42,067 nt of DNA from Acidobacteriota bacterium (GCA_036507075.1 DASXQR010000032.1:1-42067); one strand, 5' to 3'; counted from the stretch's first letter, positions 20,388 to 34,400 are shown. Notes: a model not told the origin generated them from the sequence alone. Translations and numbers: made by a program.

Positions 20388-21686
20388 TCAAACGCCTGAC
20401 GCCAGGTAGCGCTTGATGGCGGCCAAGGTTCTCTCGATCTCCTTGTGCGAATTGTAAAAATGAGGCGAGAAGCGCAGGCCCGGGCGGTCGGGTCCCAGCC
20501 TGGTGGCCCCTGCAATGTGATCTTTTTCGTAAAGGATATCCGAGAGCTTCTTTACATCCAGCGCGCCCGGCTGAAAGCTTACCACCGCGACCGAACGGCC
20601 GGGATCGGGATGGGTCCAGAGTTTTACGCCGTCGATTTTTCTTAAGCCTTCCATCAACGCCTGGGTCAATTCGCGCGCACGATCTTCGATCGCCTTTCGA
20701 CCAATCCTGATTTGGAATTTCAAGGCTTCTCCGAACGCGATGATCGCGGGTTCGTCTCGCTGTCCGAATGCTTCAAACGTCTTTGAGACCCCGACACCCC
20801 CGGGGTAAGCGCTGTAAATGCTCGGCCAGATCTTTGATTGGGCGTTTTTATTGATGTAGAGCACTCCCGTTTCCTTGGGACCGCAGGGCCACTTGTGAGA
20901 GCTGCCGCTGTAAAAGTCCGGCTGAATCTTGCCAAGATCGATATCCAGCAGTCCAAACGACTGAGCGCCATCGATCAGGGTCAGCGCTCCGCGTTCCCGC
21001 GCAATCCGACAGATTTCTTTGGCCGGAAACAGATCGCCCACCGTACTGGTCAGGTGGGTGAAGCCCACCAGCTTTGTGCGGGCATTGAACTGGCGCGTGA
21101 AGGCTTCGATGTAGTAATCATCCCCGGGATGGGGATTGACTTGTTCGACAATGCGAATCGCGAAGCCGAACCGTTTGGATTTCTGCTGCCAGGCGACGTA
21201 ATTACTCGGATGGTTGTCGGAAAAGAGAACAACTTCGTCACCCGCTTTCAGGTCGACGCCGCTGGATACCAGGTTGTTCGACTCGCTGGTGTTTCGCGTG
21301 ATGACGATTTCCTCCGGGCTCACCCGCAGAAATTCGGCGAGCAACCTTCTGGTATTCTCCTTTCCCTCGGCCATTTTGGCGCGGTTGTTAAAAGAGGCAT
21401 CACGATCGATATCCCGGGTGTTCTGGTACATGGTTTCAAGCACAGGAAGCGACGAAGGACACAGATTGGCGGCATTCATCACCGCCAGATCTGAGGGCAT
21501 CAAAAACTGTTCTCGGACCGAGTCCCAGAAGCGTTCATCGGGAGATCCCGGAGTCGGAGGTAGCGGGCGCTTCTTCTGCCATGCCAATCCCGGTTGAGTC
21601 AGCATTGCTGCGGCGCCCCCGAACGCGACGCTGCGGGCGAAATTCCTTCGATTCATTCCGGTGTTGTGAAGCCTGTTTGTTGGCAT
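20388..21686 (-). CDS. Tat-exported class V PLP-dependent enzyme (isopenicillin-N epimerase/cysteine desulfurase-like)
   Basis: NRRNF Tat motif; ITRNTSE, HPSN, DGAQ, SSHKW (PLP lysine), LRFSPHFYN; start ATG 21686 with AAGGAGG upstream. Confidence 0.9.
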   Translation of the reverse strand: MPTNRLHNTGMNRRNFARSVAFGGAAAMLTQPGLAWQKKRPLPPTPGSPDERFWDSVREQFLMPSDLAVMNAANLCPSSLPVLETMYQNTRDIDRDASFNNRAKMAEGKENTRRLLAEFLRVSPEEIVITRNTSESNNLVSSGVDLKAGDEVVLFSDNHPSNYVAWQQKSKRFGFAIRIVEQVNPHPGDDYYIEAFTRQFNARTKLVGFTHLTSTVGDLFPAKEICRIARERGALTLIDGAQSFGLLDIDLGKIQPDFYSGSSHKWPCGPKETGVLYINKNAQSKIWPSIYSAYPGGVGVSKTFEAFGQRDEPAIIAFGEALKFQIRIGRKAIEDRARELTQALMEGLRKIDGVKLWTHPDPGRSVAVVSFQPGALDVKKLSDILYEKDHIAGATRLGPDRPGLRFSPHFYNSHKEIERTLAAIKRYLASGV

Positions 21687-21720
21687 GGCAGCCTCCTTGA
21701 AAAGCTCAGCGGCGCCCGGC

Positions 21721-21770
21721 GTAGAGACGCAACATGCCGCGTCAGAGTTTGCCGCGACATGTCGGGACAC
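21721..21770. repeat. Degenerate GTAG-type REP doublet
   Basis: gtagagacgcaacatgccgcgtcagagtttgccgcgacatgtcg is homologous to the reverse complement of 26768-26821; palindrome gccgcgacatgtcgcggc also at ~21859-21876. Confidence 0.75.
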
Positions 21771-21912
21771 GTGGCTGGGTTTTTTTGATTCTATACTTTG
21801 CAGACTGGTTAAAGGTATATGCGCGGCAATTTTTTACAAGGCTTGCTACGGCAACGAGGCCGCGACATGTCGCGGCCAGGCGCTGCAAAGCAGCGCTATG
21901 GGTTGCGCAATC

Positions 21913-21940
21913 TTGACTCGATTGCCACCGATGGTATGAT
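21913..21940 (+). promoter_or_regulatory. sigma70-type promoter upstream of the riboswitch
   Basis: TTGACT (21913-21918), 16 bp, TATGAT (21935-21940) preceded by extended TG. Confidence 0.65.
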
Positions 21941-21993
21941 CCGAGTATCGGCGCGCAGGCAAAGTGCCATGCACGGGTGCGCGCTGGTATTTG

Positions 21994-22157
21994 TCTGCCG
22001 AGGCTGCAGGGCTGTTTAAAGCTCTGCGGCGCGGGGGAACCAGGTTTCACTTCGCGTGGAACAGGGGCGCATCGTCCGGATCCGATATTGGCGATCCTAT
22101 CGTAGAGCACTTTCCGGCTCGAGCCCGACAGCTAACCTCGCAGGCCAAAGGGAAGGA
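21994..22157 (+). ncRNA. c-di-AMP riboswitch (ydaO/yuaA class)
   Basis: Conserved blocks in order: GCCGA; 11-bp stem gctgcagggct/agctctgcggc; GCGGGGGAACCA; AGGGGCGCATC; GTAGAGC...GCTC; GAGCCCGACAGCTAACCTCGCAGGC; GCGGGG pairs with CCTCGC; loop CTTTCC (22110-22115) can pair with GGAAGG (22151-22156) as the known pseudoknot. Confidence 0.9.
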
Positions 22158-22358
22158 CAAAACGCCGGAGAAGTTTCCTGTCCGGATGGCCAGGTGTACT
22201 TCATGGATGGCGGAGCAAATTCGCAGAGTGACTCGTCGCGGGACCAAGCTTGACTTTCTCCCGACCACTCCTGAACGAGTGACCTTCCCCAAGCTACTAC
22301 TTACTTGCAAAAGTCATTGCACGTTGGGAAGTGGAGAGATGGCCTGAGGGCCGTCTCT

Positions 22359-22651
22359 AGACCGCGAAGCGGTCAAAGAGAATAGCCGGGGGCAAGCGCA
22401 TTTTTTTGCGCGCCGCCCCCGGTCGAGGCCCCCAATCAGGAGCGACCCTGAAAGGGTCGAAAAGCGACGTGGCGACGGCGATCTTGAAAACGATTCTGGC
22501 ACCCTTTCAGGGTGCGCTGGTTGGGGGAAGCTCACCGGGGGCGGCGCGCAAAAAACGCGCTTGCCCCCGGCTATTCTCTCTGACGCTTTCAGCGTCCAGA
22601 CCGACAATTCAATCCTTTAGACTGGTTGGCACTGCGACGTGCTCTCTTTTT
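22359..22651. mobile_element. ~290-bp non-autonomous palindromic element (MITE/REPIN-like), copy 1
   Basis: Nested IRs gagaatagccgggggcaagcg / cgcttgcccccggctattctc and ccctgaaaggg / ccctttcaggg; near-identical copy at 31462-31752. Confidence 0.85.
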
Positions 22652-22761
22652 GGTTGCGGCTCTGCCACTGTAGCCTCGTGAACATGGACGGCCTTTTGGT
22701 TGCGGCCTGCGGCCGGGCTGTGCCTTTGTGGTTGATAGGACCGATCATTTTTGGAGCAAAA

Positions 22762-23817
22762 ATGAAGCGTGACAAGCAAGCAAAAACCACAAGTCTGCTT
22801 GCAGCAACGGCAATGACGTTTCTGCTGTGCTTTGCATCGTGCGCAAAAAGCGGGCCGGGAAATGGCAGCCGGGTGACTCTGATTCTGGGAGCTTACACGA
22901 CGCCCCGCGAGGCCTACAGCAAGGCGATCATTCCATCATTCAAGCAGGTGTGGAAGAGCAATTCCGGGCAGGATGTCGAGTTTCAGGCCTCCTATCAGGG
23001 AAGCGGATCTCAGGTGCGCGCCATCATCGGCGGATTTGAAGCAGATGTCGCAGCGCTCTCTTTGTCCGAAGACATTGACAAAATCCAGCAGGCAGGATTG
23101 ATTCACCACGACTGGAAATCCAAGCCCCACGGCGGAATGGCAACGCGGTCAATTGTGGTGATCGCCGTGCGGCCGGGCAATCCAAAGGGAATCAAGGACT
23201 GGCCCGATCTTGCCAAGCCGGGCTTGAATATCCTGACACCTGACCCGAAGACATCGGGCGGCGCGATGTGGAACATTAATGCAATATACGGCGCTGCCCT
23301 CAGGGGTCATGCGGGAGTTGCAGCCAACAACGCCGCGGCGGCAGAGCAGTTTCTCAAGAGCGTCTTTAAAAATGTGACCGTCATGGATAAGGGCGCGCGC
23401 GAATCCATCACCAATTTTGAACGGGGCGTGGGCGACGCGGCTATCACTTACGAGAATGAAGTGCTGGTCGGTCAGGCGGCAGGGCAAAAATACGAGTACA
23501 TCGTTCCACGCTCCACTATTCTGATCGAAAATCCGGTTGCCCTGGTTGATCAGTATGTGGACAAACACGGCACGCGCAAGGCGGCCGATGAGTTTCTCAA
23601 CTATCTCTGGAGCAAAGAGGCGCAGCGCGCATTCACGAAATTCGGACTGCGCCCGGTCGATCCTGATGTGGAAGGGGAGGCAGTGTCCCAATTTCGAGCC
23701 GTGGAAGACCTCTGGAAGATTGACTATCTGGGAGGCTGGAAGAAAGTGATTTCCGACATCTTCGGGCCGCAGGGAGTCTACAGTCGCATGCATCAGGAAC
23801 TGCATCAGTCCAAATGA
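22762..23817 (+). CDS. sbp: Sulfate ABC transporter substrate-binding protein (probable lipoprotein)
   Basis: SYQGSGSQVRAIIGGFEADV, GNPKGIKDWPDL, PDPKTSGGAMWN, GDAAITYENE, STILIENPVA; ATG 22762 with GGAG; FASC lipobox-like site. Confidence 0.9.
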   Translation: MKRDKQAKTTSLLAATAMTFLLCFASCAKSGPGNGSRVTLILGAYTTPREAYSKAIIPSFKQVWKSNSGQDVEFQASYQGSGSQVRAIIGGFEADVAALSLSEDIDKIQQAGLIHHDWKSKPHGGMATRSIVVIAVRPGNPKGIKDWPDLAKPGLNILTPDPKTSGGAMWNINAIYGAALRGHAGVAANNAAAAEQFLKSVFKNVTVMDKGARESITNFERGVGDAAITYENEVLVGQAAGQKYEYIVPRSTILIENPVALVDQYVDKHGTRKAADEFLNYLWSKEAQRAFTKFGLRPVDPDVEGEAVSQFRAVEDLWKIDYLGGWKKVISDIFGPQGVYSRMHQELHQSK

Positions 23818-24656
23818 GAGCAGCGGCTGCAGGCACGACGGCGTCAAGGAGCATTCCGTGGGGTTGCTGGGGACTGCGATCGGCGGCCGTCGCTTACCTG
23901 TCACTGATGGTGCTGATGCCGATTGGATCGATCGTGCATTACGGCTTCAGCGACGGTGTCGCCGGTTTTTGGCGCGAAATCTCAAATCCAGTGGCTGTTG
24001 GCGCGCTGCGTCTCACTCTGGTCACCGCATTCATCGCCACTATCACCAATGCGGTCATGGGGACGCTCACGGCCATGGCAATAGTCCGCTCCGAATTCGC
24101 CGGACGACATCTGCTCAACAGTCTGGTGGACGTGCCTTTCGCAATCCCGACCCTGGTAACCGGGGTGATGCTGGTGGTGCTGTACGGCCCGCAGACTACG
24201 CTGGGCTCATTGCTTGAAGCGAAAGGCATTCGCATCATCTTCGCCAAGCCCGGCATAGTGCTGGCGCTGCTTCTGGTGACGTACCCTTTTGTGATTCGCG
24301 CCGTGCAACCTGTGTTGCTGCAATTGGAACAGGAGCAGGAAGAGGCCGCCTTCACCATCGGCGCCAGCCGGTGGACGACGTTTTGGCGGATCATTCTGCC
24401 GGAAATCACTCCGGCCGTGCTGACAGGGTCGCTTTTGAACTTCGCCCGCGCTCTGGGCGAATTCGGCGCCATTGTGCTGGTGGCAGGAAACATTCCACGC
24501 CAGACTCTGACGGCTGCGGTGCACGTTTACGGCCAGGTCGAATCACAGAACCAACTCGGCGCCAGCGCAGTTTCGCTGCTGTTGCTCGCCCTCTCATTTT
24601 CTCTTCTGTTGCTGGTGGATCGAATACAACTGAGGCGGGAGGCGCGCCGTGCCTGA
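23814..24656 (+). CDS. cysT: Sulfate ABC transporter permease CysT
   Basis: LVDVPFAIPTLVTG, PFVIRAVQPVL, EEAA..IGAS, FARALGEFGAIVLVAGNIP. Confidence 0.92.
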   Translation: MRAAAAGTTASRSIPWGCWGLRSAAVAYLSLMVLMPIGSIVHYGFSDGVAGFWREISNPVAVGALRLTLVTAFIATITNAVMGTLTAMAIVRSEFAGRHLLNSLVDVPFAIPTLVTGVMLVVLYGPQTTLGSLLEAKGIRIIFAKPGIVLALLLVTYPFVIRAVQPVLLQLEQEQEEAAFTIGASRWTTFWRIILPEITPAVLTGSLLNFARALGEFGAIVLVAGNIPRQTLTAAVHVYGQVESQNQLGASAVSLLLLALSFSLLLLVDRIQLRREARRA

Positions 24657-25503
24657 TTTTTTCAGACGCTTCAGGGCAGATCGACGGCCCCGCAACCCGC
24701 GGCGCAATGGGGCTGACATGATACTGCTGGGAGTCGCCTTCGCATACGCCGGGGTATTGCTCATCGGTCCGCTCGCGGCGCTCATCTGGAGCAGTTTGAA
24801 GGACGGGCCGGCGATCTTCCTTCGTGAAATCAGCTCACCCGATGCGCTCCATGCTCTCAAGCTTACGCTGCAATTGAGCGCGGGAGCGACGGCTATCAAT
24901 ACCGTTTTCGGGCTGGTGATGGCCTGGGTTTTCGTGCGTGACCGGTTCAAGGGAAAGGCCTGGTTTAACGGATTAGTCGATCTGCCTTTCGCCGTTTCAC
25001 CGGTAATCGCGGGTTTGATGTTAATACTGCTGTTTGGGAGGGGAGGCTGGCTCAGCGGTTTGGCTGCAGCTCTCAACATCAGGGTCGTGTTTGCCGTGCC
25101 CGGGATGTTGCTGGCGACTGTTTTTGTCACCCTGCCATTTGTGGTTCGCGAAGTAATGCCCGTGCTCGAGCAGTTCGGCATCCAGCAGGAAAGCGCGGCT
25201 TATACCATCGGTGCCACGCCCTGGCAGACATTTCGCCTGGTCACTCTGCCCGCGATCCGCTGGGGTGTGCTTTACGGAATTTCACTTACGCTTGGCAGGG
25301 CGCTCGGTGAGTTCGGAGCGCTGGTCATAGTGAGCGGCGCGCTCAGCGGTTCGACTGAAACTTCCACTCTATTCATCTTCCGTTCTCTGGACGACCGAAA
25401 CTACACGGCCGCCTATTCCATGGCGCTCGTGCTCGCCGTTGTTTCTTTCAGCGTGCTTATCTTGATGGAGTTTTTCAGGAAGCGCGCCGGGATCAAACGA
25501 TAA
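24649..25503 (+). CDS. cysW: Sulfate ABC transporter permease CysW
   Basis: DLPFAVSPVIAGL, LATVFVTLPFVVRE, LPAIRWGVLYG, RALGEFGA; alternative start ATG ~24718. Confidence 0.92.
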   Translation: MPDFFRRFRADRRPRNPRRNGADMILLGVAFAYAGVLLIGPLAALIWSSLKDGPAIFLREISSPDALHALKLTLQLSAGATAINTVFGLVMAWVFVRDRFKGKAWFNGLVDLPFAVSPVIAGLMLILLFGRGGWLSGLAAALNIRVVFAVPGMLLATVFVTLPFVVREVMPVLEQFGIQQESAAYTIGATPWQTFRLVTLPAIRWGVLYGISLTLGRALGEFGALVIVSGALSGSTETSTLFIFRSLDDRNYTAAYSMALVLAVVSFSVLILMEFFRKRAGIKR

Positions 25504-25533
25504 TCCGCATAATGATGAGTGGAACAATCATTG

Positions 25534-26658
25534 ATGAGAAAGAAACCCATTAGCAGGTACCTGATGTTGGTTCTGGCTGCTCTGCTGCTTTCATCCAGGC
25601 CGGCTCAATCACAGAACAATGCCGGTCAAACAGGGGCTGCCGGATCCCAGAACTCCAAGCCTCCTGGCATCAGCCGCTGGCTTGAGATATCGAGCCTTAC
25701 CATAAATGCCCGCTACCGCTTCATCCAAACCACAGAGGGGATCACTACGACCAGCCACCTGCAGTACAGAGACTCGGTTGTAGGGCGCTTCAAATTCGAT
25801 CAGGAAGGCCGTTACACCCTCAATGCCGGGCTGCATACCGGCAAAACCTTCATCAGTGGCTGGGATGCGAGCGGTTGGGGACGCGGCGGTAACGGCGTCA
25901 CTAATCATTACCTGAAGCAACTGTACTTCTCAGCCAAACCGATGAAAGGTCTGGAGCTGCAATACGGCGGACTTTTTCTGCTCCGCGGTGAGACGACGGA
26001 AATCACCACCTATGACAATGACGCTTACATCGTGGGCCAGCGGATCAGTCTCAAAAAGCCGAAGGATTTCTTCTTTGACGAGATTTCAGTGACATACGCC
26101 TATCTGGGCGATACGACAAGGCCGAACCTCAATAAACGATTTAATCGCCTGCAGAAGTCTAACTATCATCAGTTTCTGCTAAGCAAGAAGATCAGCCCGC
26201 GGGCGACCGTTTCGGGGGATTACACGTTTCAATCGGGAATAGAAACGCTGCGCCAAGCGGTCACCGTCAACGTCCCGGAGTTTCGTCTCATCCACCGACT
26301 GCGCTTTGAGAACTATCAACGCGTCGATGTTCGGCCGGCATACGGATTCATGCTTTACGGCGAGCGGCCGGTCCTTGGCCGCGGCAATATTGGAGGAGGG
26401 TACGCCAGTATTGACCGCAACTACAGCGTCCTGAACGCAGATCGGTTCCAATTGAATTCGGACAAGTTTCAAAAGGGCAATCGCCTGTATCTGACGGGGA
26501 GCTGCAACCTACGTCCATTTCTTACTGTGTCTGCCTTTTGGTTACCCGCTGTGGCCAACAACTACCCCGTGGCGAATCAGCAACACTTCCAGTTGGTCGT
26601 GAGCTACGATCTCAGGAAAGTCTTGGGAAGCTGGGGGCCTTTCAAGTCGCCTAAGTAG
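25534..26658 (+). CDS. Putative outer-membrane beta-barrel/porin
   Basis: Signal peptide; alternating amphipathic strands rich in Tyr/Phe/Arg (INARYRF, LKQLYF, FQLVVSYDL); lies inside the cys operon. Confidence 0.65.
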   Translation: MRKKPISRYLMLVLAALLLSSRPAQSQNNAGQTGAAGSQNSKPPGISRWLEISSLTINARYRFIQTTEGITTTSHLQYRDSVVGRFKFDQEGRYTLNAGLHTGKTFISGWDASGWGRGGNGVTNHYLKQLYFSAKPMKGLELQYGGLFLLRGETTEITTYDNDAYIVGQRISLKKPKDFFFDEISVTYAYLGDTTRPNLNKRFNRLQKSNYHQFLLSKKISPRATVSGDYTFQSGIETLRQAVTVNVPEFRLIHRLRFENYQRVDVRPAYGFMLYGERPVLGRGNIGGGYASIDRNYSVLNADRFQLNSDKFQKGNRLYLTGSCNLRPFLTVSAFWLPAVANNYPVANQQHFQLVVSYDLRKVLGSWGPFKSPK

Positions 26659-26767
26659 CCCGGCAGGAGATGCCGATGCCACGAGGACACGAAGCCACGA
26701 AGGCCAAACAAATGGGTTCTTTAACATTGGACGGACTCCAATCCGCTGTAGTGTTTGGATCGATACC

Positions 26768-26821
26768 GTAGAGACGCGACATGTCGCGTCTGAGCTCTGA
26801 CGCGGCATGCCGCGTCTCTAC
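26768..26821. repeat. GTAG-type REP doublet (REPIN)
   Basis: gtagagacgcgacatgtcgcgtct-gagctct-gacgcggcatgccgcgtctctac: two palindromic REPs in inverted orientation, GTAG at each outer end; nonamer repeats flank it. Confidence 0.85.
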
Positions 26822-26910
26822 GTCCGGAAGAGTCTTGGCGCCTTCGTGGCAGCCGCGAAAGATTTAGTTATCATTATGAGCTGTGTCCAGGTGAGCGTTT
26901 AAATCTTCGC

Positions 26911-28782
26911 ATGTCCATCGTTCTTGAAGAAGTCATAAAGCGGTTCGGCGACCACACGATCGTGGATCGGGTCTCGCTCGAGATCCAGGACAGCGAACTG
27001 TTTGTTCTACTGGGAGCAAGCGGCAGCGGCAAGACCACGATACTGCGCATCATCGCCGGGCTGGTGCAGCCCGACGGGGGAAAAGTTCTGCTGAAGGGAA
27101 GAGATGTAACCTGGCTTGCGCCCCAGCAGCGGGGAACAGGATTTGTGTTTCAGAACTATTCGATCTTTCGTCACATGAATGTGGCGCAGAACATTGAATT
27201 CGGGCTTAAGATCCGAAAAGTTGCGGCGGCCGAGCGGAAGCGAAAAAGCGATCAGTTGCTGGAAATGGTGGGCCTGACCGGCCTGGGAAACCGTTATGCC
27301 AGCCAGCTTTCAGGTGGCCAGCAGCAAAGAGTGGCTCTGGCGCGGGCACTGGCCTACGAACCGGAGGTCCTCCTTCTGGACGAACCGTTCGGAGCGCTGG
27401 ATGTAAAAATCCGGGCGCAGCTCCGGCGCAGCCTCAAAGAGATACAGCGCAGCCTTGGCGTGACGACCATCCTGGTAACACACGATCAGGAGGAAGCGTT
27501 CGAGCTGGCCGACCGCATCGGAGTTCTCGAGCGCGGACAACTGCTCGAAGTCGGAGAGGGCGACAAACTTTACCGCGAGCCGAAGACACTCTCGGTGGCT
27601 GCATTCCTGGGCGCCGGAAATGTTCTGGTGGGAATGGCGCAGCGCGGCCGCGCGCAATTCGGACCGATTTCACTTCCGATACCCGATGACGTGCCTCATG
27701 ACGACGGATCTCAGGTCCAGTTGCTGATCCGCCCCGAGCAGGTGAAGCTGCTGGAGGAGCAGCCTGAGTCGGACACGCCGGTCCTTGGAAAGGCGCGCGT
27801 GATGGAGAAGAGTTTTGCGGGGGCGGCGCAGCGGCTGCGCTTGAAGCTTCCTCATATTCCCGGCGTAAGACAGATCGCGCCTCCGACAGCATTTGGTGAG
27901 GAAGGGCTCATTCTTGAGGCCTCCATTGCAGTCGATGATCCGCTGCCGAACTCCGAACTGTGGGCGGCGCTTCGGGGATGGCATATCCTGGCCCAGCCCA
28001 GACGGCACCTGCTGGTCATCGATAGTGGTTCCGGCACGCCTGTGTCCCTTGAAATCGGAGCTTTTCTTGCCCGGCGCATGGATGCCTCCGCGACGGTGCT
28101 GGCGGTGGGGAAAAGCCCGGAATCTGCGGGACTGCTGGAAGCGGCCCTTAACAGCAGAATGGCCGCGGCAGGTTTGGATGACGCGCGGGCGCAAATCCGA
28201 CACGGAAATGTCGCCGAGCAGGTTTGCAGCGAAGCGGCTGAAGGCGTATATGAGATGTTGATCACAACACCCCAGGTCCAGCGGTTTTCCGATCGCGACG
28301 GGGCGACGGAACATCTCGGAGCCACTCTGGTCAAGATATTGAAGCGTGTGCCGATTCCGGTGCTGGTGGTTAAAGGGAGTACCAGAGAAATATCGCGCAT
28401 TCTGATTTGCACCGCGGTCGGTGAACCGGGAAAGCATGACGTCACGGTGGGAGGAAGGCTTGCCCGCCTGCTTGCCGCCGGTGCGACGCTGTTGTACGTG
28501 TCCCAAAACCCGGATCATCTGGGAAAACTGGTCAGCGCCCATCTGGAAAAGGCGGCCACTACGCTGCGTGAGATGGACGTGCCGGCGGAGGTCAGGATTC
28601 GTCGCGCAGGTTCGCCTCAAGAAGGCATCCTTGAAGAAGCGCGCGCCGGCGATTACGACTTGATCGTGGTGGGTGGGGCCCCGCCGAAATCGCGGCGATT
28701 CTCACGACTGCGAAACATTACCAGCGCCATTCTGGCGGGAGCCGACCGCCCGGTGCTGGTCGTACCCGCGAGCATGTCCTAG
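26911..28782 (+). CDS. cysA: Sulfate ABC ATPase CysA fused to two C-terminal universal stress protein (USP) domains
   Basis: GASGSGKT, FVFQNY, LSGGQQQRVALARALA, LLLDEPFGALD, VTHDQEEA; TOBE-like region; then HLLVID...IPVLVVK and RILICT...YDLIVVG...DRPVLVVP USP folds. Confidence 0.9.
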   Translation: MSIVLEEVIKRFGDHTIVDRVSLEIQDSELFVLLGASGSGKTTILRIIAGLVQPDGGKVLLKGRDVTWLAPQQRGTGFVFQNYSIFRHMNVAQNIEFGLKIRKVAAAERKRKSDQLLEMVGLTGLGNRYASQLSGGQQQRVALARALAYEPEVLLLDEPFGALDVKIRAQLRRSLKEIQRSLGVTTILVTHDQEEAFELADRIGVLERGQLLEVGEGDKLYREPKTLSVAAFLGAGNVLVGMAQRGRAQFGPISLPIPDDVPHDDGSQVQLLIRPEQVKLLEEQPESDTPVLGKARVMEKSFAGAAQRLRLKLPHIPGVRQIAPPTAFGEEGLILEASIAVDDPLPNSELWAALRGWHILAQPRRHLLVIDSGSGTPVSLEIGAFLARRMDASATVLAVGKSPESAGLLEAALNSRMAAAGLDDARAQIRHGNVAEQVCSEAAEGVYEMLITTPQVQRFSDRDGATEHLGATLVKILKRVPIPVLVVKGSTREISRILICTAVGEPGKHDVTVGGRLARLLAAGATLLYVSQNPDHLGKLVSAHLEKAATTLREMDVPAEVRIRRAGSPQEGILEEARAGDYDLIVVGGAPPKSRRFSRLRNITSAILAGADRPVLVVPASMS

Positions 28783-31438: not shown

Positions 31439-34400
31439 ATGAATCTGGTTAAGCGGGCAGCAGACCGCGAAGCGGTCAAAGAGAATAGCCGGGGGCAAGC
31501 GCGTTTTTTGCGCGCCGCCCCCGGTCGAGCCCCCCAATCAGGAGCGACCCTGAAAGGGTCGAAGAGCGACGGGGTGACGGCGATCTTGAAAACGATTCTG
31601 GCACCCTTTCAGGGTGCGCTGGTTGGGGGAAGCTCACCGGGGGCGGCGCGCAAAAAACGCGCTTGGCCCCGGCTACTCTATTTGACGCTTTCAGCGTCCG
31701 GACCGGCAATTCAATCCCGTAGCTGGTTGGCACTGGGACGGGCTCTCTTTTTTGCCGCCGCGCTCCACGTCGCTTCCTGTTTCGCGCTGGCCGATCTGCA
31801 GGTCTTTGGGTCGTTTGAAGAAGCGTCAGAAGTGCAGGCCGTCCATGCCACAAACGGAGTCCGCATTACATCTTCCAAACGCTTTCCTGCCTGGAAAGGA
31901 GATTCGCTCGAGGTGATTTTCCCCGCGCAGGGCGGCGCCATCGAGTACTCGAAAATTCCAACCGATTGGCGCCGGCAGGAAGCGCTGCTTCTTTTTGTCT
32001 GGAGCGAGCAGCCGGCGCAATTGGAAATTACGCTGCGTGACTTGTCGCGCGCGTCATTCAGCAAAGCGTTCAATCTTCGCCCGGGAGCAAATCACCTGCA
32101 GCTTGCCATGGCCTCCCTGGTCGGAATCAACCGGGCACAAATGACGCAGCTTTCAATTCAATCGCGTGCGGCGGGAACTTTCTACCTGGATTATTTTGCA
32201 CTGGATCGATTTCATCCGATGCTGGAGAAGCGCGGCCGCTGGGACATCAACTACTCGATGGATGTTCCTACTCCCCACGTGCCCTGGGGCCGTCCCTTCG
32301 TCAATGGTCCGATTCATATTTATGCAATCGCCGATGTGGCCGACGGCCGCGGGGTCGTGGAGCTGGCGCAGAGGCTGGAGTCGAATTTCAAGGCAACGAC
32401 CATCGGCCGCAATACTTCCACGAACAAGTGGGGCTTTGGTGATTTTTATGAGCAGCGGAGCGCGGGAGGGGAATTCTGGATTGATGCCTACAGCCTGGCG
32501 TACACCTACATCGCCGACGATCTGATTCATGGTCCGGAATACGATGTGATCCTCTGGCCGGGTCTGCGTCCGTGGGAGAGCTATCCTGCTGAGGTTCGTG
32601 ATGCCGTTCGAAGGAGAGTGGAAAGCGGAACCGGCCTCGTCTTCTTCTACCCATTCAGCCGCGACGGGACCGCGAAGAACGAAAGCCTTTGGAATCCTTC
32701 GCCGCTGACGCGAGCGCAGGAGGTCAAGAGCGCAAGCAGCAACAATCCCTTACTCAATGATCTATCCCGGCTGGACCGCTCAATGTGGCGCCCGGCGGCG
32801 GGCCATTACATCACACGTGGTGTGCCGTTGGCGGCCTTCCCATGGGGTCATATCGGCGTGCCGGCGTCGCGTGCTGTCGGGGAGGTATTGCTCGAGACCT
32901 CCGAGAAGGTTCCAGTTCTCGCGGTGGGAAGCGCCGGCCGCGGTCGAGTGGTCGCTTTCGGATACAGTGAGAAGGGAATGATCCCGGAAATAGAACAGGT
33001 CTTCGAGACGGGATTGCACTATCCGTATCAGGAGTATCTCTGGTCGCTGGTAGCACGGGCGGTTACCTGGGCGGCTCGAAAGGAACCGGAACGCGGAATC
33101 GAGAAAATCAGTTTCCTGCAGGACCGCGTCGAAATCTCGCTCAATGGCCCAGTCCCGAACGCGCGCGCCTTGGTCTTAGTTCACAACAGCTTCGGAGAGT
33201 TGGAAGCCGAGATTTCTTCCCGCATATCCCTTTCTTCAAACAACGCGACGAGCCGTTTTCCACACTCGCTGCCGCCAGGACGACATTTTGCCGACGTGCG
33301 AGTGATCAGCGGCGACAAGGCTTTCGACTGGGCAGCGCAAGTCCTGGATGTCCCTTCGCGGCTGAAAATAGAAGTTCTCAAACTGGCGCGTGACCGGGTG
33401 GCTGCGGGAGAGGACGTCTTGGTAAACCTGCGGTTGTCTTCCAGCGAAAAAATCGAATGCCTCGCGAAGGTCCGGGTGCTGGACAATTTCGACCGGCTGC
33501 TGGATGAACAGCGTTTGCAGATCACTTTCGCCGGAGAAACAGAAAAATCAGTGACTTTGAAATCAGCCGGCTGCCTCTCTCATCTGGCACGGATTGAATG
33601 TGAAGTCTTTGCCGCAGGTGTCCGCCAGGACCGCCGTGTGGCAGAAGTGTTCATTCTTCAGCCTCGCAAATGGGATGACTACGACATCGTGATGTACCGG
33701 TTCGGGCCTGATCCAATTCCGGGGATCTGGCCCACAATCGATGCTCAGCTCCAGCGCCTCAACGTCACGACGCTGTCGTCCTACTCGCTGCAGCACAGCA
33801 AACATGCCAACTACAACGTGCAGGCGCAGACCCGTATCAGCGGCCAGGAATCTCCCGACGGGGCGGCGCGCGCCTACTATACTGCGATGAAAAAGAAATA
33901 TCTGGAGACCGGCGACAAGAATGTGCTGGTGCGGGAGTACTGTCTGGATGATCCGGCCTATCGCGCCCGCATTCGGGAGGAACTGACTCGACTGACCGCT
34001 CCCTGGGTGCCATTTTCTCCGCTGTCTTATTACGTTTTAGAGGAACCTTCGCTGACCTGTTACGGGGATGCCGTGGATATCTGTTTTTCGCCGTTCACCC
34101 TTGCGGCGATGCGACGGTGGCTGCAGAACAGCTACGGAAGCCTGGAAGCGCTGAATCAGCAGTGGAGCACGGATTTCCACCGCTGGGAAGATGTAACGCC
34201 CGACGATTCCCCCGCGGCGCAGAAGCGCGGCAATTACGCCTCCTGGGCGGATCATCGCACGTACATGGAAACGGTTTACGCCGGCACTTTCGAGTATGTC
34301 CTCCATGAACTTCAAAGGATCGACCCCGGCGGGATACTGCTCAATTCGGGTACGCAGATTTCAGGTTCGCACAACGGCTGCGATTACAGCCGGGTTGATT

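Follow-up and report, generated by a model that had tools for sequence, protein, structure and literature searches.

We analyzed a 42,067-nucleotide stretch of genomic DNA from an Acidobacteriota bacterium (GCA_036507075.1, DASXQR010000032.1:1-42067), hereafter called the window, and describe here a riboswitch of the ydaO class, with cyclic di-AMP (c-di-AMP) as its predicted ligand, at the head of a sulfate-type ATP-binding cassette (ABC) importer operon. The riboswitch is predicted to be transcribed from its own promoter and would head, as a 5′ leader, the one sulfate ABC importer operon of Sbp type in the genome. This operon is predicted to hold sbp, cysT, cysW, a porin gene and a gene for a CysA-like ATPase fused to universal stress protein (USP) domains. 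The riboswitch appears to take the slot that is held by a gene for an Rrf2-family regulator in the closest sister operons. We give this reading as a whole, namely a riboswitch-headed sulfate importer operon with ancestral linkage, a likely OFF switch and control that persists in the window genome, a probability of roughly 0.6. An initial annotation, made from the sequence alone, had proposed that c-di-AMP controls the uptake of sulfate or a related anion at this locus. See Table 1 for the coordinates of all features.

A ydaO-class aptamer upstream of sbp

We regard it as practically beyond doubt that the ydaO-class aptamer is genuine. A cmscan search of the window matched the Rfam model RF00379 at 59.8 bits (gathering score 38, E 1.5e-11) over the full model (134/134 positions). 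The initial annotation had placed a complete ydaO-class aptamer at 21994-22157 and suggested a model search, which thus returned a significant, full-length match with slightly wider bounds. RF00379 is the sole Rfam match at gathering level in the 42-kb window, and the aptamer is the only RF00379 copy in the genome (6.1 Mb, 233 contigs). The structure line of the cmscan match contains nested pairs only.

The covarying stems that had been reported for this aptamer were also recovered. Eight aptamers (that of the window, three of its own family and four of a second family in the class) were aligned on an Rfam-type pairing scheme that included helix P1. Paired cells amounted to 88.1% of this alignment versus 75.0% in shuffles, and pairing fell to 38–49% in a control with slid partners. 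Both sides had changed in 25 of the 45 pairs, a count reached by 0 of 500 shuffles, with the kinship among the eight aptamers overstating their independence. One helix carries a compensatory swap seen in the window only (GAGC/GCUC, versus GGAC/GUCC in the relatives), which points to selection acting on the aptamer. Since its non-standard pairs are common to the relatives as well, and given this swap, the aptamer shows no decay. Judged by its sequence, it is an ordinary member of a known riboswitch class. We also considered an extra helix between the 5′ flank and the sequence just 3′ of the Shine-Dalgarno (SD)-like tail (columns 6–10/196–200) and rejected it, with one-sided changes only and 77% pairing.

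The genome also carries one gene encoding a diadenylate cyclase (DAC) domain (284-aa frame, 136.4 bits), the cyclase that the initial annotation had proposed to look for. A DAC gene was found in four of the five relatives tested; the relative with no DAC match is 77% complete.

Conservation of the aptamer-sbp pairing

We surveyed 61 genomes of the class with RF00379 at stricter filters and found the aptamer in seven of them. Within the family of the window genome, three of the four other genomes have RF00379 (G001, G003 and G004), and in all three the next gene after the aptamer encodes a sulfate-type substrate-binding protein (SBP; SBP_bac_11). G004 has the full sbp-cysT-cysW-ATPase::USP set behind its aptamer. 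All four family genomes with sbp therefore have the aptamer, the window genome included. Neither G002, from the same family (93% complete), nor G005, the only genome of the sister family (92% complete), has the aptamer, and protein search and family model found no sbp in either. In the other family of the class, the aptamers stand in front of genes for an amino-acid permease, for SPFH proteins and for a peptidoglycan-binding protein. These are targets of the usual kind; those named for the class are transporters of K+ and of amino acids and genes of cell-wall remodelling and osmotic shock (PMC7266159).

A second survey used a model built on the eight aptamers and covered 80 sbp loci from species-representative genomes and 80 from metagenome contigs. 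Three of the 160 fetched loci have the aptamer, and all three fall in the closest clade: the G004 contig, which was the only match in the genome set, and the metagenome loci L112 and L113. The aptamer of L112 is complete (Rfam, 77.5 bits), and that of L113 is cut at its 5′ side by the contig end. L115 shares the L113 leader on a contig that stops 130 nt before sbp, and was judged by leader homology only. Together, the aptamer or its leader stands directly before sbp at six further loci, three in same-family relatives and three on soil metagenome contigs. The spacers between aptamer and sbp are 4, 111, 147, 156, 273 and 600 nt, the last being that of the window. The survey of sbp upstream regions that the initial annotation had called for thus extended the pairing to all three sbp-holding family relatives, two metagenome contigs and one more by leader homology. 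This distribution of sequences argues that the pairing is not due to chance and points to a linkage ancestral to a small Acidobacteriota clade.

Rrf2 genes in the sister operons

The closest sbp loci without the aptamer are L029, L030 and L116, whose SBPs are 63–65% identical to that of the window. Each has a gene for an Rrf2-family protein (147–150 aa, 125–129 bits) on the same strand, 122–157 nt before sbp. A fourth locus, L117, shares the leader of L116. Searches with the aptamer models found no aptamer in any of these four Rrf2-headed operons. The Rrf2 protein of L116 has, as read from its sequence, three closely spaced cysteines, a spacing that we liken to that of iron-sulfur-binding Rrf2 proteins. 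Known sulfate importers are placed under protein regulators such as CysB. The initial annotation had drawn the contrast with such Cys-type regulation, and the sister operons fit it, with an Rrf2 regulator in the slot of the riboswitch.

We built an SBP tree of 38 rows, to which three tryptophan-type rows had been added. Duplicates of the window, G001, G003 and G004 were left out, as were rows below 47% identity, with fewer than 280 aligned residues or with stops. A single 11-row clade (support 99/85) takes in every riboswitch-type row and every Rrf2-type row from Acidobacteriota. G000 has only Rrf2 paralogues of 34–41% identity. Therefore, closely related sbp operons would have exchanged one regulatory device for the other, once or more often and in either direction.

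Genes of the importer operon

TIGR00971 has a single match in the genome, this binding protein. Its full length aligns with 1sbp (E 9.9e-62), 5um2 (1.9e-61) and SubI 6ddn (1.3e-50), all three of them sulfate-binding proteins of solved structure. Compared with 1sbp, the SGG and GAR segments are unchanged, and a tyrosine stands at the position of the pocket tryptophan, which we take to be W192. Across many phyla, 45 of 146 motif-bearing loci share this tyrosine, which makes it a broad subfamily trait. The CysW-like permease passes its subfamily model and falls below the CysW equivalog TIGR02140 (288.6, cut-off 329.1). Other sulfur genes in the genome include a 3′-phosphoadenosine 5′-phosphosulfate (PAPS) reductase and an NIR_SIR reductase, and the only SulP match is marginal.

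The initial annotation had read a co-oriented sbp-cysT-cysW-β-barrel-cysA array. Order, strand and barrel stand; the “cysA” is a 623-aa fusion of an ABC_tran domain with tandem USP domains. The 379-aa barrel protein matched no Pfam or NCBIfam family, and its 577 homologues are all unnamed. A single-sequence AlphaFold model had a predicted local distance difference test (pLDDT) score of 32.8 and was superseded by an AlphaFold2 (AF2) model with a 42-row alignment, which shows a barrel at pLDDT 81.9. A Foldseek search with this model returned OmpU (E 7.8e-10), OmpM1, the Rhodopseudomonas blastica porin and Omp32, all at probability 1.00 with template modelling (TM) scores of 0.47–0.66. By its predicted structure, the protein has a porin fold like that of general trimeric porins, which are 16-strand barrels. 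BLASTP of the barrel against the Porin_O_P gene of L117 and the downstream frame of L115 showed no real similarity, and the barrel family is not confined to riboswitch loci.

The ATPase scored 310.9 against the sulfate subfamily TIGR00968 (cut-off 342.75), and its best match, PhnT2, is also below cut-off. Its USP half has 109 homologues, nearly all of them 605–640 aa ABC-USP fusions from Acidobacteriota and some Chloroflexota. These homologous fusions are named sulfate transport ATPases in their sources and also occur in operons without the aptamer. The c-di-AMP motifs given for USP domains, SXS-X20-FTAXY of the KdpD type (PMC4686210) and (A/G/C)XSXSX2N(Y/F) (PMC8214093), had no match in the ATPases of the window and G004, and the USP ATP motif G-X2-G-X9-G(S/T) is likewise absent from both.

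A gene for a sulfatase-tetratricopeptide repeat (TPR) protein starts 24 nt after the ATPase stop and is possibly co-transcribed with the operon. Its position next to the importer suggests sulfate-ester scavenging. The gene is not conserved in the relatives; G004 has a TPR-DnaJ gene in that position.

Predicted promoter and native leader

The promoter-like site assigned to the riboswitch by the initial annotation was returned by our consensus scan as the only + strand site in 21600-22900. All five loci with upstream sequence (G001, G003, G004, L112 and the window) have promoter-like sites before the aptamer. The distance to the aptamer is 7–13 nt in G001, G003, G004 and L112 (9–11/12 matches) versus 45 nt in the window. 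As had been noted from the sequence, there is no convincing gene between aptamer and sbp, and the two + strand frames there have no Pfam match.

The aptamer ends in a purine-rich, SD-like tail. This tail pairs with CCUUCCC at 22284-22290 in both the minimum free energy and centroid folds of the native leader, a fold whose stability does not stand out from shuffles. In G004 and L113, too, there are exact 7-nt complements to the tail. Beyond the tail, the native leader of the window cannot be aligned with those of the relatives. It includes a 60-nt tract with 22 C versus 7 G (GC skew −0.24 to −0.30), and a similar tract is present in G001. This composition, a hint only, would suit Rho-dependent termination.

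Upstream of the promoter lies a divergent gene on the minus strand (20388-21770) that resembles class-V aminotransferases and cysteine desulfurases (Aminotran_5, 168 bits) and is below all specific NCBIfam cut-offs. The upstream neighbor varies among the relatives, and G004 has a TerC gene there. A copy of a ~50-nt palindromic repeat is also found upstream of the riboswitch promoter, at 21716-21764.

Repeats within the operon

Of the 600 nt between the aptamer end and the sbp start, 419 nt are nested interspersed repeats. They comprise three elements, the longest of which is palindromic and resembles a miniature inverted-repeat transposable element (MITE). A second copy of this 245-nt element is present in the window at 31462-31702 and is 95% identical to the leader copy. 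Folded as RNA, the whole block reaches −247 kcal/mol (z −13.4). The gap between the porin and ATPase genes holds a further palindromic repeat, beside which we found a weak promoter-like site at 26846-26874 (9/12) and a terminator-like site at 26843-26859, with counts within shuffle expectation.

Table 1. Features of the window and Rrf2 genes of the sister operons.
Feature	Position	Strand	Evidence
Predicted sigma-70-like promoter, TTGACT-16 nt-TG-TATGAT	21913-21940	+	Consensus scan, 10/12
c-di-AMP (ydaO-class) riboswitch aptamer	21986-22161	+	RF00379, 59.8 bits, model positions 1-134/134
Purine-rich 3′ tail of the aptamer, SD-like GGGAAGG	22146-22160	+	Read from sequence
Native leader segment, including a C-rich and G-poor tract (22253-22312)	22162-22313	+	No extra genome copies
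Nested interspersed repeats (419 nt)	22314-22732		89 match pieces elsewhere in the genome
~40-nt element	22324-22360		67 genome matches
245-nt palindromic MITE-like element	22356-22600		23 near-full genome copies
~50-nt element	22680-22732		94 genome matches
sbp, sulfate-type periplasmic binding lipoprotein	22762-23817	+	TIGR00971, 240.4 bits (cut-off 155.5)
cysT permease	23814-24656	+	TIGR02139, 273.8 bits (cut-off 246.1)
cysW-like permease	24649-25503	+	TIGR00969, 295.7 bits (cut-off 240)
379-aa outer-membrane barrel, predicted porin fold	25519-26658	+	AF2 and Foldseek
~50-nt palindromic repeat in the porin-to-ATPase gap	26767-26827		About 120 genome matches; roughly 55–125 for the repeat with its sister copy at 21716-21764
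623-aa CysA-like ABC ATPase with two fused USP domains	26911-28782	+	ABC_tran 118.7 bits, Usp 55.2 bits
Sulfatase-TPR protein, 742 aa	28806-31034	+	Sulfatase 152.4 bits and C-terminal TPR repeats
Rrf2 regulator genes of sister operons	L116 838-1287; L029 242-685; L030 5433-5885	Same as sbp	Family match

Proposed mechanism and alternatives

The ligand response, direction and mechanism that we infer are as follows. Bound c-di-AMP would lock helix P1 and tie up the purine-rich tail, which would make the riboswitch an OFF switch. The sbp start codon of G003 (L005 507-526, minus strand) is 4 nt after the end of the Rfam model, and because the tail ends 8 nt before the AUG, it looks like a ribosome-binding site; the start of translation would be blocked there. 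We consider the OFF direction probable, because initiation at the SD-like tail of G003 would be hindered by a ligand-stabilized P1 and because published members of the riboswitch class are described as responding to c-di-AMP in K+ and osmotic control (PMC7266159, PMC6488665). At the other loci, the result is probably premature termination, either at GC-rich hairpins with pyrimidine-rich tails, as read after the aptamers of G001, G004 and L112, or at C-rich Rho-type tracts. In the window, repeats were inserted into the leader with the aptamer left intact, and control at the level of the transcript probably persists, although this is the weakest step. The aptamer is very likely a cis-regulator of sbp in the clade. 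For the window genome itself, we put continued control of sbp at slightly better than even odds. The physiological reason could be anion balance with K+ or a coupling of sulfur uptake to growth state.

Several observations weigh against this reading. Our scan found no terminator-like site in the native leader (22162-22313), whose fold is also no more stable than shuffles (z 0.28). By the rule of that scan, which was run on the window alone, only the L112 hairpin would be a terminator, the tails having been read by us. The six loci do not share a conserved expression platform. In the SBP tree, riboswitch-type rows interleave with Rrf2-type rows at mostly weakly supported inner forks, which bears on the order of events. 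The ATPase is below every curated cut-off, and it is missing from the G003 operon contig. Most directly for the window genome, the 419-nt repeat block stands between aptamer and sbp with two + strand terminator-like hairpins (22628-22643 and 22701-22722), and the leader copy of the 245-nt element would form a perfect hairpin of ~220 nt that may stop or cut the transcript before sbp. Finally, no RNA run was listed among the public runs with the stretch 21900-24000; DNA contigs from two soil runs (X1 and X2) cover it, and none of them bridges 22400-22703.

The repeat block, with its hairpins and its large folding energy, would fit a different reading, in which the repeats terminate or cleave the leader and sbp is transcribed from a promoter in or after them. 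This would leave the aptamer as a recent relic, or as the switch of no more than a short leader RNA, and the failure of the native leader to align past the tail is in keeping with this. However, our scan returned no + strand promoter-like site in 22162-22762, and the aptamer is free of decay and carries its lineage-specific compensatory swap. The porin-to-ATPase gap contains a similar repeat too, so that such repeats would be tolerated inside the cluster if the cluster is one transcription unit. We therefore hold such an uncoupling to be unlikely, though a real concern for the window. An artefact of assembly, with unrelated contigs joined through a shared repeat, would likewise be confined to the window. 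The X1 and X2 contigs stop at 22370-22399 and restart at 22703; with no contig bridging the repeats, the join rests on the original assembly. However, the contigs flanking the repeats are of comparable depth (10.4 and 7.6 in X1, 13 and 13.6 in X2), and the join is backed by the same order of aptamer and sbp in six other loci that do not have these repeats, which makes an artefact highly improbable. In one low-depth X1 contig, 21897 and 22333 are connected by 24 letters of other sequence. We considered this joint as a deletion allele and rejected it, as both ends lie in repeats and the contig probably comes from another repeat-bearing locus. Control of sulfate-type uptake by c-di-AMP, as first proposed, is thus supported in part, by the full aptamer, the DAC gene and the clade-wide linkage; a role of the anion as counter-ion or osmolyte, which the initial annotation had suggested, would be a further hypothesis.

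A further alternative accepts the riboswitch and questions the cargo. The importer may carry not sulfate for assimilation but another oxyanion or an osmotically relevant solute, which would make it an ordinary ion or osmolyte target of c-di-AMP. The tyrosine in the binding pocket and the scores of CysW and the ATPase below equivalog cut-offs would agree with this. Transporters of ions and osmolytes are the known targets of c-di-AMP (PMC7266159), and a review describes a Synechocystis riboswitch of the class before slr0753, a putative chloride efflux transporter (PMC10117731). However, SBP and CysT score above curated sulfate cut-offs, the best solved relatives of the SBP are all sulfate-binding proteins, and the tyrosine form is too widespread to be special to the clade. 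Furthermore, the sister operons stand behind an Rrf2 regulator, and the genome, which has sulfate-reduction genes, contains no second Sbp-type system. We find a different cargo decidedly unlikely and retain sulfate as the predicted substrate.

A bolder version of the sulfate reading is that c-di-AMP took over sulfate acquisition from an Rrf2 protein of the iron-sulfur type, with the riboswitch acting on expression and the tandem USP domains serving as a second receptor that gates transport. We regard this as a long shot. If such two-level control were true, it would mirror the dual control of K+ and osmolyte importers and would tie the uptake of sulfur or anions to the turgor and K+ signal.

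Comparison with known systems

No published pairing of a c-di-AMP riboswitch with a sulfate importer was found in the literature searched, which did not extend to the tables of Nelson et al. 2013 and Block et al. 2010. The initial annotation likewise knew of no described case, and the part of the search that returned mainly papers without c-di-AMP is weak evidence for this negative. In that literature, the conserved placement of the riboswitch ahead of the sole sulfate importer, where sister operons have an Rrf2 gene, appears to be unreported, and it is moderately surprising. c-di-AMP is known mainly for potassium, compatible-solute and cell-wall homeostasis, and a conserved riboswitch in front of the only sulfate importer would extend this list by a major nutrient anion. 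The setting is the Acidobacteriota, a dominant and poorly studied soil phylum. The presence of Rrf2 or riboswitch in the same slot offers a natural experiment on a change of controlling signal, and a leader that has absorbed ~420 nt of palindromic repeats is a useful test of the robustness of riboswitch leaders.

The nearest systems are the sister operons themselves. Those of L029, L030, L116 and L117 belong to the same SBP clade (63–65% identity) and have the same gene order as the window. As in the window, the next gene behind cysW in L117 encodes a porin (Porin_O_P, 136 bits), and the start of a CysA-like ATPase gene comes after it. The difference is at the head of the operon, where the window has a promoter and aptamer and L029, L030 and L116 have the Rrf2 gene. 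Compared with the known importers, namely Salmonella Sbp (1SBP) and M. tuberculosis SubI-CysTWA, the SBP, CysT and CysW-type proteins of the window likewise pass curated sulfate subfamily cut-offs. Unlike those importers, the window has a riboswitch leader, a porin gene inside the operon, an ATPase with two C-terminal USP domains and a tyrosine for the pocket tryptophan.

The ATPase also recalls the USP domain of S. aureus KdpD, a c-di-AMP receptor. Both place a USP domain on a protein of transport or its control, in hosts that use or are predicted to use c-di-AMP, and the first USP domain of the window has an SxS loop. Unlike KdpD, the window USP domains lack both published c-di-AMP motifs, and the fusion is common without a riboswitch.

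Among riboswitches, those of B. subtilis kimA and ktrAB and B. thuringiensis kdpFABC share with the window the same aptamer family, a 5′ leader behind its own promoter and a DAC gene in the host. Unlike them, the window has no intrinsic terminator in its native leader, a 600-nt leader with repeats and a sulfate-type ABC importer downstream. The riboswitch of Synechocystis slr0753 is alike in preceding a transporter of an inorganic anion. However, slr0753 would export a monovalent anion in an osmotic role, whereas the predicted target in the window is an ABC importer of a nutrient oxyanion.

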